From Escherichia coli (GTDB lineage: Bacteria; Pseudomonadota; Gammaproteobacteria; Enterobacterales; Enterobacteriaceae), in assembly GCF_041886205.1 (NCBI RefSeq), contig NZ_CP169029.1: a stretch of DNA of 64,000 bases. One strand, given 5' to 3'. Of the stretch, positions 1-61,304 are shown one piece after another (positions within the stretch are counted from its first letter, which is position 1; the number at the start of each line of letters is the position of its first letter). The position numbers were made by a program, and so were the translations under genes. The notes under the pieces are model-generated. The model did not search any database. It saw only the letters and a program-made list of their open reading frames with translations, and was not told the origin of the DNA.

Positions 1-1313
1 GCGATCTGGCCTCTAACATCCTGCTGGATATTGGTACGCTTTATCTTTTGAAGTTTTATACCGACGTTCTGGGGCTACCTGGCACCTATGGCGGCATTAT
101 CTTTTTGATCTCGAAATTCTTTACCGCCTTTACCGATATGGGAACCGGCATCATGTTGGATTCCCGGCGTAAGATTGGCCCGAAAGGTAAGTTCCGCCCT
201 TTCATTTTGTACGCGTCATTCCCGGTCACCTTATTGGCAATCGCTAACTTTATCGGCACACCGTTCGATGTCACTGGTAAAACGGTGATGGCCACTATTC
301 TGTTTATGCTCTACGGGCTGTTTTTCAGCATGATGAACTGCTCCTATGGCGCGATGGTGCCTGCTATTACCAAAAACCCCAACGAGCGCGCATCACTGGC
401 GGCATGGCGTCAGGGAGGCGCTACGCTGGGCCTGCTGCTGTGCACGGTGGGATTCGTGCCGGTTATGAATCTTATCGAAGGTAATCAGCAACTTGGCTAT
501 ATCTTCGCCGCCACGCTGTTTTCACTGTTCGGCCTGCTGTTTATGTGGATCTGCTACTCGGGCGTGAAAGAGCGTTATGTCGAAACCCAACCAGCCAATC
601 CGGCGCAAAAGCCTGGCCTGCTGCAATCTTTCCGCGCAATTGCCGGTAACCGCCCACTGTTCATTCTGTGCATTGCCAACCTCTGCACTTTAGGGGCGTT
701 TAACGTCAAGCTCGCCATCCAGGTCTATTACACCCAGTACGTACTTAACGATCCCATCCTGTTGTCATATATGGGATTTTTCAGCATGGGCTGTATTTTC
801 ATCGGTGTGTTCCTGATGCCTGGCGCAGTCAGGCGTTTTGGTAAGAAGAAGGTCTATATCGGCGGCCTGCTGATTTGGGTGCTGGGCGATCTGCTCAACT
901 ATTTCTTCGGCGGCGGTTCGGTCAGCTTCGTGGCGTTCTCCTGCCTGGCGTTCTTTGGCTCAGCGTTTGTTAACAGCCTGAACTGGGCGCTGGTTTCCGA
1001 CACCGTCGAGTACGGCGAGTGGCGCACCGGCGTGCGTTCGGAAGGAACGGTCTACACCGGTTTTACCTTCTTTCGCAAAGTGTCTCAGGCGCTGGCTGGT
1101 TTCTTCCCCGGCTGGATGCTGACGCAAATTGGCTATGTGCCGAACGTCGCACAGGCTGACCACACCATTGAAGGGTTACGCCAGTTGATCTTCATCTATC
1201 CAAGCGCACTGGCGGTAGTCACCATTGTGGCGATGGGTTGCTTCTACAGCCTGAACGAGAAGATGTATGTCCGCATTGTGGAAGAGATAGAAGCCCGTAA
1301 ACGCACGGCGTAA
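1..1313 (+). CDS. yihP: MFS/GPH-family sugar transporter, 5'-truncated by window edge (sulfoquinovose cluster member)
   Basis: ORF 48..1313 stays open to the window start in the same frame; paralogous to the next ORF (shared LKFYTD...GGIIFL...FTAFTDM...GPKGKFRPF motifs); position upstream of yihO-ompL. Confidence 0.8.
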   Translation, partial: DLASNILLDIGTLYLLKFYTDVLGLPGTYGGIIFLISKFFTAFTDMGTGIMLDSRRKIGPKGKFRPFILYASFPVTLLAIANFIGTPFDVTGKTVMATILFMLYGLFFSMMNCSYGAMVPAITKNPNERASLAAWRQGGATLGLLLCTVGFVPVMNLIEGNQQLGYIFAATLFSLFGLLFMWICYSGVKERYVETQPANPAQKPGLLQSFRAIAGNRPLFILCIANLCTLGAFNVKLAIQVYYTQYVLNDPILLSYMGFFSMGCIFIGVFLMPGAVRRFGKKKVYIGGLLIWVLGDLLNYFFGGGSVSFVAFSCLAFFGSAFVNSLNWALVSDTVEYGEWRTGVRSEGTVYTGFTFFRKVSQALAGFFPGWMLTQIGYVPNVAQADHTIEGLRQLIFIYPSALAVVTIVAMGCFYSLNEKMYVRIVEEIEARKRTA

Positions 1314-1355
1314 TAATAATAAACGACGCCCTGCGGGGCGTTATAAGGAGTGATT

Positions 1356-2759
1356 ATGTCTGACCATAATCCACTGACATTAAAACTGAATCTGCGGGAA
1401 AAAATCGCCTATGGTATGGGCGACGTCGGTTCGAATTTAATGCTCTGCATCGGTACTCTGTATCTCCTCAAATTTTATACCGATGAATTAGGGATGCCTG
1501 CTTACTATGGCGGGATTATCTTTCTGGTGGCGAAGTTTTTTACCGCGTTTACCGATATGCTCACCGGATTTTTACTCGACTCGCGGAAAAATATTGGGCC
1601 TAAAGGCAAATTTCGTCCCTTTATTTTATATGCAGCGGTTCCGGCGGCGTTAATTGCAACGCTCCAGTTTATCGCCACCACCTTTTGTTTGCCGGTTAAA
1701 ACGACGATTGCCACCGCGCTGTTTATGATGTTTGGACTTTCATACAGTCTGATGAACTGCTCGTATGGTGCGATGATCCCGGCAATTACCAAAAACCCGA
1801 ATGAGCGCGCGCAGCTCGCGGCTTACCGCCAGGGTGGTGCAACCATAGGGCTATTGATTTGTACCGTGGCGTTTATTCCGTTGCAGTCGCTTTTTTCTGA
1901 CTCAACCGTCGGTTATGCCTGTGCGGCACTTATATTCTCCATTGGCGGCTTTATTTTTATGATGCTGTGCTACAGAGGCGTCAAAGAGCATTATGTGGAC
2001 ACAACGCCAACCGGACATAAAGCCAGTATTCTCAAATCATTTTGCGCGATATTTCGGAATCCGCCATTGCTGGTTTTATGCATTGCTAACTTGTGTACCC
2101 TGGCGGCATTTAATATCAAACTGGCGATTCAGGTCTATTACACCCAGTATGTGCTGAATGATATTAATTTATTGTCGTGGATGGGATTCTTCAGTATGGG
2201 ATGCATCCTCATCGGCGTATTACTGGTGCCATTAACTGTAAAATGTTTTGGTAAAAAACAGGTTTATCTGGCTGGCATGGTGCTGTGGGCGGTGGGTGAT
2301 ATACTGAATTATTTCTGGGGAAGTAACTCTTTCACTTTCGTCATGTTCTCTTGTGTCGCCTTTTTTGGCACGGCCTTTGTAAACAGCCTGAACTGGGCAC
2401 TGGTACCAGATACCGTAGATTACGGTGAATGGAAAACCGGTATTCGTGCCGAAGGTTCTGTTTATACCGGTTATACCTTCTTTCGTAAAATTTCTGCCGC
2501 ACTTGCTGGCTTCTTGCCAGGCATTATGCTGACGCAAATTGGTTATGTTCCCAACATCGCGCAAAGCGATGCGACATTACAGGGTTTGCGTCAGCTCATT
2601 TTTATCTGGCCTTGTGCACTGGCAATTATTGCTGCATTGACGATGGGATTCTTTTACACACTCAATGAAAAACGGTTTGCATTGATTATTGAGGAAATCA
2701 ACCAACGCAAAAATAAAGAGATGGCGACAGAAGAAAAAACGGCTTCCGTAACGTTATAA
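1356..2759 (+). CDS. yihO: MFS/GPH-family transporter (sulfoquinovose cluster)
   Basis: 467-aa product from ATG 1356 with AAGGAG Shine-Dalgarno at 1345..1350; track ORF begins at an upstream GTG (1350); recognised YihO sequence. Confidence 0.85.
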   Translation: MSDHNPLTLKLNLREKIAYGMGDVGSNLMLCIGTLYLLKFYTDELGMPAYYGGIIFLVAKFFTAFTDMLTGFLLDSRKNIGPKGKFRPFILYAAVPAALIATLQFIATTFCLPVKTTIATALFMMFGLSYSLMNCSYGAMIPAITKNPNERAQLAAYRQGGATIGLLICTVAFIPLQSLFSDSTVGYACAALIFSIGGFIFMMLCYRGVKEHYVDTTPTGHKASILKSFCAIFRNPPLLVLCIANLCTLAAFNIKLAIQVYYTQYVLNDINLLSWMGFFSMGCILIGVLLVPLTVKCFGKKQVYLAGMVLWAVGDILNYFWGSNSFTFVMFSCVAFFGTAFVNSLNWALVPDTVDYGEWKTGIRAEGSVYTGYTFFRKISAALAGFLPGIMLTQIGYVPNIAQSDATLQGLRQLIFIWPCALAIIAALTMGFFYTLNEKRFALIIEEINQRKNKEMATEEKTASVTL

Positions 2760-14936: not shown

Positions 14937-15124
14937 GCTCACTCCTTCCGATGGCGTCTCTGGCGGCTACGGCGTACCGGCGGATGCCCGTTTCGGGTCA
15001 TCAGCCGGTTGCGCAGCCACTTTTGTCGCCGCGACAACCGCTGTAGTTTAACGAATAACCACACCAGATAACATATAACCGGAAGGGTTATCAGCAGAAC
15101 GGGAAGGCCCACGGCGGCAATCCG

Positions 15125-15634: not shown

Positions 15635-15702
15635 AATGGTTCGTCTTTTAGCCGTTTTATTCAGTATAGATTTGCGGCGGAATCTAACAGAAAGCAAGCA
15701 AA

Positions 15703-15945
15703 GAAAAAAGGCGACAGATTACTCTGTCGCCTTTTTTCCTGACTCATAACCCTTAACGGGTCTTACAATCCTTGCAGGCCGCCAACACACCCTGTTTTTC
15801 CTTTAGCCGGAACAATCCGTGTTGATTCCATTTCCGTTTAATTACGTCTCCGGACGTTTGTCTTCCTGACAATCCTCTGTCTTCGCCTCCTGGCGCTCCT
15901 GACCCTCATCCTGAGTCATTGTTCCTGTTAGCGTCCTCGCTCTAT
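15703..15945 (-). ncRNA. csrC: CsrC small RNA (CsrA-sequestering)
   Basis: reverse complement matches CsrC from ATAGAGCGAGGACGC.. to the terminator GGCGACAGAGTAATCTGTCGCCTTTTTT; multiple GGA motifs; between yihI and engB. Confidence 0.85.
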
Positions 15946-16215
15946 GGGTGCTACTTTACGCCTTTGCTTTAAACAAACAATCAACCGCCATCAGTATTTG
16001 CACATTTTCAGAGTTTTATATAAAAGCAATTCACTGATTTATATAGCTTATTTGACATGCATCGCAGAATTTTCTCTGCTATTTCGCATAAAGACTATCG
16101 GCAATGTCTCACAAAGCGTATGGCTTTTACTTACAACGCTCACGCCGAAAAATCCGCCTTTTATTATGGTTCAGGTATAATCGCCACAAAGCTTTGACTG
16201 ACGGAGACGACCGCT

Positions 16216-16848
16216 TTGACTAATTTGAATTATCAACAGACGCATTTTGTGATGAGTGCGCCTGATATTCGCCACCTACCTTCCGATACCGGAATTGAAG
16301 TGGCTTTTGCAGGCCGTTCCAACGCAGGTAAATCCAGTGCGCTGAACACGCTGACTAACCAGAAAAGCCTGGCTCGTACCTCAAAAACCCCAGGGCGCAC
16401 CCAGCTTATCAACCTGTTTGAAGTGGCTGACGGCAAGCGTCTGGTTGACTTGCCTGGGTACGGTTATGCGGAAGTCCCGGAAGAGATGAAGCGCAAATGG
16501 CAGCGTGCGCTCGGCGAATACCTCGAAAAACGTCAGAGCCTGCAAGGTCTGGTGGTGCTAATGGATATTCGCCATCCGCTGAAAGATTTGGATCAGCAGA
16601 TGATTGAGTGGGCGGTAGACAGCAATATCGCCGTTCTGGTGCTGCTGACCAAAGCGGACAAACTGGCAAGCGGCGCACGTAAAGCGCAATTGAATATGGT
16701 GCGTGAAGCTGTACTGGCGTTTAACGGTGATGTGCAGGTTGAAACGTTTTCTTCGTTGAAGAAACAAGGCGTGGACAAGCTGCGGCAGAAACTGGATACC
16801 TGGTTTAGCGAGATGCAGCCTGTAGAAGAAACGCAGGACGGCGAATAA
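16216..16848 (+). CDS. engB: ribosome-biogenesis GTPase EngB/YihA
   Basis: 210-aa ORF with apparent TTG start; G1 motif GRSNAGKSS. Confidence 0.9.
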
Positions 16849-16973: not shown

Positions 16974-17082
16974 TAAAAAACGCCCCAGTCATTACTGACT
17001 GGGGCGGCTAAAATATTCAGCCAAATCCGATTACGTGAAGTAAAAGGTCTGAAAGATAGAACATCTTACCTCTGTACCCTAC
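16974..17082 (-). ncRNA. spf: Spot 42 small RNA
   Basis: reverse complement matches Spot 42 (GTAGGGTACAGAGGTAAGATGTTC...) through the terminator CCGCCCCAGTCAGTAATGACTGGGGCGTTTTTTA. Confidence 0.9.
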
Positions 17083-17229
17083 GCGACTAACTTTACTCTT
17101 TTTTGTTCAGTTCAGAAAGCACTTTTTGTAATTTTTTTTCAGTTGTTGCATAGGAATTTCTAATAGCCATCACAAAACGTGACAGCTTATGTTGCTTACT
17201 TACGAAAAAAGGGCATGTTCAGGCGAATC

Positions 17230-59342: not shown

Positions 59343-61172
59343 CTACTCTTCGTCGTCGCCATCGACATGCGCACGAATCAGCGCCATAAACGGTTTACCA
59401 AAGCGTTCCAGCTTGCGCATCCCAACGCCGTTAACGCTGAGCATTTCGCTGGCGGTGATCGGCATCTGTTCAGCCATCTCAATCAAGGTTGCGTCGTTAA
59501 ACACCACGTACGGCAGGACATTACTATCATCGGCAATCGATTTACGCAGTTTGCGTAATTTGGCGAACAGTTTGCGATCATAGTTGCCGCCGAACGATTT
59601 CTGCATCGCTTTCGGTTTGAGCGCCACGATACGCGGCACGGCAAGTTGCAAAGAGGATTCGCCGCGCAGCACCGGGCGCGCGGCCTCTGTCAGTTGTAGG
59701 GCAGAATGCTGGGCAATATTTTGCGTCACCAGGCCGAGGTGAATCAGCTGGCGGATCACGCTCACCCAATGTTCATGGCTTTTATCACGGCCCATGCCAT
59801 AGACTTTCAGTTTGTCATGACCATAGTCGCGGATACGCTGGTTATTAGCACCACGAATCACTTCCACCACATAACCCATCCCAAACCGCTGATTCACACG
59901 ACCAATGGTGGAAAGGGCAATCTGAGCATCGGTTGAACCGTCGTACTGTTTCGGCGGATCGAGGCAGATATCGCAGTTCCCGCACGGCTCCTGCCGCCCT
60001 TCGCCAAAATAGTTCAGCAATACCAGACGACGGCAAGTTTGCGCTTCGGCAAAAGCGCCCATCGCATTGAGTTTATGACGTTCGATATCCTGTAACTGCC
60101 CCTGCGGCTTCTCTTCCAGGCAACGGCGCAGCCACGCCATATCGGCCGGATCGTAAAACAGCATCGCTTCCGCGGGCAGGCCATCACGCCCGGCGCGACC
60201 GGTTTCCTGATAATAGGATTCGATATTGCGCGGAATATCAAAGTGGACCACGAAGCGAACGTTTGGTTTATTGATGCCCATGCCGAACGCCACCGTCGCC
60301 ACCACAATTTGCAGGTCATCGCGCTGGAATTTCTCCTGCACGTCGGCGCGGACATTATTTTCCAGCCCGGCATGATAGGCCGCCGCGCTAATACCCTTGC
60401 TTTGCAGGCGCGCAGCGGTGTCTTCTACTTTCGCCCGGCTGTTGCAGTAGATAATGCCGGACTTACCGCGCTGTTCCTGCACGTAGCGCATCAACTGATC
60501 GAGCGGTTTGAATTTCTCCATCAGCATGTAGCGAATATTCGGACGGTCAAAACTGCTGATTTGAATCAGCGGATCGTTCAGCCCCAGCAAGCGCACGATA
60601 TCCTGGCGCGTGGTGTCGTCGGCTGTGGCAGTCAGCGCCATAAACGGCAGCGTCGGGAACCGCTGGCGCAACTGACCGAGCGCGGCATATTCCGGGCGGA
60701 AATCGTGGCCCCATTGGGAGATACAGTGCGCTTCATCAACGGCTAATAACACCGGATTCCAGTGCGCCAGATGCTCAAGAAAGTTATCCAGCATCAGGCG
60801 TTCCGGCGCGATATAAAGCAGGCGGATTTGCCCGGTGCGACAGCCTGTCATCACTTCAAGTTGCTGCTCGCGGGTTTGCGTCGAGTTAAGGCACGCCGCC
60901 GCCACGCCGTTGGCTTGCAGTTGATCCACCTGATCTTTCATCAACGAAATCAGCGGTGAAACAACCACGGTAAGGCCGTTTAGCAATAAGGCAGGAATTT
61001 GATAGCAAAGGGATTTTCCGCCACCAGTGGGCATAACAACCAGACAATCGCGACCGGAAAGCACAGTGTCGATAATTTCTTCCTGGCCGGGGCGAAACTG
61101 TTGGTAGCCAAAGGTTTCTTGTAAAACCTGTTTAGCTCCGGACTCCAGATTCAACACTTCCGCCTGCGCCAC
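59343..61172 (-). CDS. recQ: ATP-dependent DNA helicase RecQ
   Basis: 609-aa product if started at GTG ([12 protein letters not shown].. read as M); an in-frame ATG two codons upstream (61178) gives the 611-aa track ORF; helicase motifs, zinc-binding and HRDC regions. Confidence 0.95.
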
Positions 61173-61304
61173 ATTCACCCCGATTGCCTGAAATAAAAAC
61201 AGGCGCTATTTTCAGCGCCTGCGCGAGAAACTGCAATGCTTTTAGTCTCTGAGAGGGTAATCCTGGATGATGGATTCCAGATTTGCCAACCACTCAACCG
61301 TTCA

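Follow-up and report, generated by a model that had tools for sequence, protein, structure and literature searches.

UUG and GUG belong to the canonical start codons of bacteria; the initiator tRNA decodes them as fMet, and both fall outside the class of codons that IF3 discriminates against. In reporters they give 10-100 % of the activity of AUG. The closest described system for the engB start examined here is yihA/engB of E. coli K-12 (b3865, NP_418301.3), another strain of the same species, whose 5' region is identical, base for base, to that of the window (by which we mean the whole stretch of 64,000 nucleotides that was analyzed), and which agrees with it in protein, TTG, GGAG and length without any difference. 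The 2006 record of K-12 still started yihA at an ATG; by the 2014 record this had been changed to TTG. The UUG-initiated E. coli genes ybeZ, bisC, yhjK and ftsH (PMC4909307) resemble engB in that the alternative start was often missed in favor of a downstream ATG, but the TTG of engB was already present in the 2014 record and the gene stood outside the lacZ-fusion tests described in that paper. For recQ (b3822), the nearest counterpart is its own entry in PMC9841429, which has the same GTG in an ATGTG context, while the conserved Shine-Dalgarno-like element that we describe below was not scored by the criteria of that study. A further comparison is offered by infC, where a non-AUG start lowers or tunes expression, as those of engB and recQ would do; the AUU of infC is, however, regulated through IF3 discrimination, and unlike infC there is no sign of autoregulation for engB or recQ. 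Set beside these systems, the starts of engB, recQ and yihO in the window are almost certainly ordinary, already annotated bacterial sites, among which the two canonical alternatives to AUG are used. The non-ATG starts of engB and recQ are already known, and that of engB is experimentally verified. The first-pass annotation of this DNA had presented all of them as points of start-site annotation rather than novel biology, and we concur, as all three positions are the curated K-12/PGAP starts.

The window is a piece of the E. coli chromosome which runs from yihP to rarD in reverse K-12 orientation and is equivalent to 4.003-4.067 Mb of K-12, with the gene order yihP-yihO-ompL ... glnALG-hemN-yihI-csrC-engB-spf-polA ... 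rrnA ... recQ-pldA-yigI-rarD. The 1.7-kb stretch around the engB start found a match at 95-100 % identity in 5425 of 5426 complete E. coli genomes, and the recQ region was likewise present in 5425 of the 5426. When the K-12 annotation was mapped onto the window, 44 of the 52 CDS started with ATG, seven with GTG and one with TTG. This non-ATG share (8/52) is close to the usual E. coli start-codon shares of 83/14/3 %, and the count in this window is therefore not unusual. Besides recQ, six genes begin with GTG according to the mapped K-12 annotation; these were absent from the first-pass annotation and are located as follows.

8715, minus strand: GTG start of bipA
24983, plus strand: GTG start of mobA
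32203, minus strand: GTG start of hemG
44494, minus strand: GTG start of tatB
49379, minus strand: GTG start of rmuC
55517, minus strand: GTG start of bioP

A few observations on the neighboring genes may be recorded here. The sRNA gene csrC (15692-15945, minus strand; Rfam RF00084, 278.7 bits) is divergent from engB, and inside it, at about 15753-15919, PGAP places a pseudo-CDS ('hypothetical protein; frameshifted; internal stop'), apparently an sRNA mistaken for a protein gene. Between engB and polA comes Spot 42 sRNA (16974-17092, minus strand; Rfam RF00021, 122.8 bits); the 15-codon ORF spfP, which starts at 17064 on the minus strand, has an annotation in K-12 but in only a part of the PGAP records. 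The K-12 record of 2014 also differs from that of 2006 in the start of mobB (25549, plus strand), a gene which overlaps the end of mobA: the start was shifted upstream by 15 nt, to an ATG. In the TetRP (tetracycline ribosome profiling) table of PMC4909307 its signal, 30/7/20, is weaker and more variable.

The features of the engB start region, in order along the plus strand, are these.

16176..16181, plus strand: TATAAT, probable -10 box of the engB promoter, proposed from sequence and conservation
16195..16197, plus strand: in-frame stop TGA, which closes the frame 7 codons (-21) before TTG
16203..16206, plus strand: GGAG, core of the Shine-Dalgarno (SD) sequence, 9 nt before TTG
16216..16218, plus strand: engB start codon TTG, read as fMet; first ATG/GTG/TTG of the ORF and the start in K-12 b3865 and PGAP
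16216..16848, plus strand: engB/yihA CDS, 210 aa plus stop, MTNLNYQQ...
16252..16254, plus strand: codon 13, an in-frame ATG; K-12 start in the record of 2006, unused

The yihA gene of K-12 MG1655 and the PGAP record WP_000183349.1 are both 633 nt long, which places the start of both at TTG 16216. The first-pass annotation had likewise let engB begin at this TTG (MTNLNYQQ..), and it was right to do so, as this is the first start-capable codon after the TGA and opens an ORF of 210 codons. It was mistaken, however, in denying engB an in-frame ATG close to the 5' end, since codon 13 is such an ATG and served as the 2006 K-12 start; other in-frame start-capable codons early in the gene are TTG at codon 4 and GTG at codon 12. 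Between the TGA and the TTG, CTG 16198 and ACG 16201 are the sole candidate start codons. A consensus promoter scan near engB returned no full -35/-10 pair, so that TATAAT is put forward as a probable -10 box alone. The protein is identical at 210 of 210 residues to chain A of PDB 1PUI (E. coli EngB), falls in protein cluster P0001, which is named YihA family GTP-binding protein, and matches B. subtilis YsxC (1SUL) with E = 3.4e-34, while PF01926 is recorded for a protein identical to it. Judged by its sequence, the engB product is the EngB/YihA/YsxC ribosome-biogenesis GTPase. It may be noted that 1PUI, 7SZS and 1OYW derive from recombinant constructs and therefore give no independent evidence for a native N-terminus.

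Experimental evidence on this start has been published. Row 57 of Table S2 of Nakahigashi et al. 2016 (PMC4909307) gives TTG as the new start of yihA, at -36 nt from the 2006 ATG, in agreement with the 2014 K-12 record; the 2006 protein began MSAPDIR, that is, at the ATG of codon 13. The TetRP signal in the same study is 181/190/153 at TTG against 0/0.36/0 at the 2006 ATG. The study also lists a COFRADIC N-terminal peptide for yihA, with a value of 6 (Table S4, going by the main text), which covers residues 1-19 from the Met at TTG. Such a peptide, with Met where the TTG stands, requires that translation be initiated there. Thus N-terminal proteomics and initiation profiling, which the first-pass annotation had proposed as a check on these starts, were already in print for engB and both favor TTG (PMC4909307). 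The N-terminomics supplements of TRAINSPOTTER (PMC13245402) make no mention of yihA, engB, recQ or yihO, and the EcoGene 3.0 paper names yihA solely as an uncharacterised gene and says nothing on its start.

For comparison across species, one scan of reference genomes gave 80 engB loci, all with distinct CDS and 77-97 % nucleotide identity to the window, from Escherichia, Salmonella, Citrobacter, Klebsiella, Enterobacter, Kosakonia, Pantoea and others (Enterobacteriaceae plus Pantoea). The codon aligned to the engB start is TTG in 74 of the 80 and GTG in the remaining 6 (Enterobacter, Silvania), its second and third bases being invariant. Downstream of TTG the mean entropy at the three codon positions is 0.20, 0.23 and 0.84 bits, while upstream it is flat (1.36/1.33/1.40), and codon periodicity begins at codon 2. 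All 80 loci carry GGAG upstream of the start, with a spacer of 9 nt in 61 species, 8 nt in 11, 7 nt in five and 6 nt in three; since the spacer varies by lengths that break the frame, the stretch between SD and TTG is not coding. TATA[AC]T stands 37-45 nt before the start codon in 80/80 species. In a protein search for distant EngB orthologues, the matches listed were all at least 83 % identical. Combined together, the published initiation profiling and N-terminal peptide and the species comparison made here show that engB of E. coli starts at TTG 16216.

Two other starts have to be weighed against it. Initiation at the in-frame ATG of codon 13 (16252), which would give the 198-aa protein of the 2006 K-12 record, could be argued from the general preference for ATG and from its standing as the curated start in U00096.2, but we give it virtually no probability, as ribosome profiling signal is practically confined to TTG, the observed peptide begins twelve codons earlier, no SD precedes this ATG, and codons 2-12 are conserved in a coding manner. 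Moreover, codon 13 is ATG in just 18 of the 80 species and ACC in 47, with codon 12 start-capable in 31. On the other hand, translation might begin before the TTG, in E. coli at CTG 16198 or ACG 16201 and in some relatives at an ATG at -15, so that TTG 16216 would be an internal Leu codon. In favor of this, the in-frame codon 15 nt upstream of the start is ATG in 21/80 species and GTG in 3/80, products with an MMETTV extension are found in databases, and the conservation of GGAGACGACC exceeds that of a minimal SD. Even so this reading is extremely improbable and in E. coli is in effect excluded, as no candidates other than CTG and ACG remain after the TGA at -21. The codon at -15 shares bases with the SD and lacks a separate one, the spacer between SD and TTG differs among species by 1-3 nt, and codon periodicity is missing upstream of TTG. 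An internal Leu codon should also show CTN/TTA synonyms, as codon 4 does (TGG 42, TTG 22, CTG 13 in the 80 species), whereas codon 1 is TTG or GTG only, and the observed peptide has M at this position. For some relatives, an upstream start is possible as far as sequence alone can tell; in Kosakonia, too, the short form of EngB is favored by the changing length of the spacer and by the flat entropy before the start. TTG 16216 is the start that we retain for engB.

Public databases hold several longer forms of the protein. Kosakonia EngB occurs as MTNLNYQK of 208 aa (P0036, P0047) alongside MMETTVLTNLNYQK of 214 aa, and over-extended EngB products, with extensions of 6 or 53 residues, are represented by proteins P0002, P0024, P0044 and P0049. 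In a 263-aa E. coli form the TGA at 16195-7 reads TGG, and the call runs back to an ATG at 16057 across the promoter (16057-16215, plus strand). The 5' region of E. coli engB also has some peculiarities of arrangement. GCTTTGACT is duplicated on the plus strand at 16191-16199 and 16213-16221, 22 nt apart, with the TTG start inside the second copy, and the palindrome AAAGCTTT lies at 16189-16196 (plus strand). The GCTTTGACT/AAAGCTTT arrangement is confined to E. coli-like 5' regions (Escherichia, Salmonella and a few Citrobacter loci) and missing in other genera, and we treat it as chance. A predicted hairpin which would bury the UUG by pairing CAAAGC 16187-16192 with GCUUUG 16213-18 (MFE -14.8 kcal/mol, z = -1.43) was considered and set aside as chance too, as 19 of 200 shuffles fold equally well and in other genera its 5' arm is not kept.

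recQ lies on the minus strand, which the first-pass annotation had left out, and its start region comprises the following features.

59343..61172, minus strand: recQ CDS, 609 aa plus stop; N-terminus matches PDB 1OYW from residue 2
61170..61172, minus strand: recQ start codon GTG, as in K-12 YP_026263.3 and PGAP
61175..61181, minus strand: SD-like GGGGTGA, which contains the in-frame GTG 61178..61176, the longest-ORF start

On the minus strand this region reads ...GGGGTGAATGTGGCGCAGGCG..., and it is identical in three E. coli lineages. The recQ CDS is 1830 nt long in K-12 YP_026263.3 and in two PGAP records, which sets the start at GTG 61172..61170. Relatives were collected with a degenerate DNA pattern for 11 protein letters, which gave 120 metagenome stretches, 117 of them with enough upstream sequence, and these reduced to 65 distinct sequences; the counts below use 61 of the 65, the other four being distant homologues out of register. 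In all 61 the aligned start codon is GTG, including relatives in which just 6 of the 19 residues from 2 to 20 agree with E. coli, and an SD-like G-rich tetramer (GGGG, GGAG or GAGG) is found within -15..-4 of the start in 60/61. This comparison shows GTG 61172..61170 to be the conserved recQ start, and the protein probably begins there. The first-pass annotation had chosen the same GTG, and both the K-12 and PGAP records and the relatives uphold it; it erred in describing the start taken by the ORF track as an ATG, which is in fact the GTG at 61178..61176. The sole nearby ATG (61174..61172, minus strand) is out of frame and overlaps the start codon, giving the ATGTG context. In the searched tables of PMC4909307 recQ is missing; Table S2 there covers only genes with new start sites.

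Were recQ translated from the upstream in-frame GTG (61178..61176), which is the first start-capable codon of the longest ORF, the protein would have 611 aa and begin MNVAQAEV. We hold this very unlikely, since the triplet is not a start codon in 53 of the 61 distinct relatives: it is GTG in 8, GTT, GTC or GTA in 37, and a stop (TAG or TAA) in 4. It also lies inside the SD-like GGGGTGA, and the curated K-12 and PGAP records take the downstream GTG. It is conceivable, too, that initiation at AUGUG is ambiguous, such that the out-of-frame AUG at 61174..61172 is used as well and a short overlapping peptide damps recQ translation. Kohl et al. 2022 (PMC9841429) show dual initiation at some sites of this kind and include recQ in their Table 2 as an atGTG-starting gene of low abundance (0.594 ppm), but the entry has no SD of at least 4 nt and carries no prediction of ambiguity; ambiguous AUGUG/GUGUG sites need an SD at an aligned spacing of about 12/14 (PMC9841429), and by the rule given in that paper the short spacer after GGGGUGA favors the 3' GUG. 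The overlapping ATG is present in just 21 of the 61 relatives and absent in 40 (AAC/AGC GTG and similar), which makes it unlikely to be functional at recQ. Altogether we regard ambiguous initiation as very unlikely.

At yihO the start region is made up of two features.

1345..1352, plus strand: AAGGAG (1345-1350) and, sharing a base with it, the in-frame GTG 1350-1352 that opens the longest ORF; read from sequence
1356..1358, plus strand: yihO start codon ATG (CDS 1356..2759), as in K-12 YP_026275.1 (CDS 1404 nt) and two PGAP records

AAGGAG ends 5 nt before the ATG, and the upstream GTG begins with its final G. A GTG two codons before an SD-supported ATG was what the first-pass annotation had reported for yihO, and all three elements were found where it implied. 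The initiation region is invariant in four aligned E. coli lineages and is, for that reason, uninformative on the choice of start; from the annotation and the geometry of the SD we infer that yihO starts at ATG 1356. Apart from this, the yihP-yihO junction (1200-1500, plus strand) of the sulfoquinovose cluster was found in 3880 of 5426 complete E. coli genomes, and a GC-rich hairpin (GACGCCC TGC GGGGCGT) is present between the yihP stop and the yihO SD.

Three genes of the window share one pattern. In yihO (1350-1352, plus strand), hemN (14940-14942, minus strand) and recQ (61176-61178, minus strand) the longest-ORF GTG stands exactly two codons before the annotated start, and in each of them this upstream GTG is part of an SD-like sequence complementary to the 16S rRNA 3' end (GGAGTGA or GGGGTGA). 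Because the GTG belongs to this SD-like sequence, recQ, yihO and hemN each gain two false codons when the longest ORF is taken, and the two-codon GTG extension of these genes is a systematic artefact of longest-ORF calling. Preference for ATG is another source of error, as in the 2006 K-12 record, which shortened EngB by 12 residues; the right N-terminus, inclusive of residues 1-12, is relevant to constructs and structure work. These questions of start site are already settled in the current reference annotation, and their importance is little.

Initiation at the three genes can be pictured as follows. At engB, the GGAG 9 nt upstream would position the 30S subunit, presumably through SD pairing, and the initiator fMet-tRNA would pair with UUG 16216-16218 to begin Met-Thr-Asn-Leu, the ATG of codon 13 then being read as an internal Met. 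At recQ, initiation would take place at GUG 61172..61170 (minus strand), with the GUG two codons upstream serving as part of the SD-like GGGGUGA. At yihO it would take place at AUG 1356, 5 nt past AAGGAG, the SD that the upstream GUG overlaps. No mechanism beyond canonical initiation is called for at engB, recQ or yihO.

The persistence of the weak start codons deserves comment. The engB start codon opens with T in 74 of the 80 species and with G in the other 6, never with A. Four-fold degenerate engB sites have a median major-allele frequency of 0.59, and just 1 of 50 is as conserved as this first base, a comparison that ignores phylogenetic non-independence. The GTG of recQ is kept in 61/61 relatives, although a single transition would turn it into ATG. 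Retention of such codons runs against the general drive towards AUG start codons (Belinky et al. 2017), and it could therefore reflect selection for low levels of EngB and RecQ. That the weak start codons of engB and recQ are held by selection, and are not neutral leftovers, is in our opinion a tentative suggestion from sequence conservation, and rather doubtful than probable. If it is true, the levels of EngB and RecQ would be deliberately capped at initiation, and an ATG allele of either gene would be harmful.
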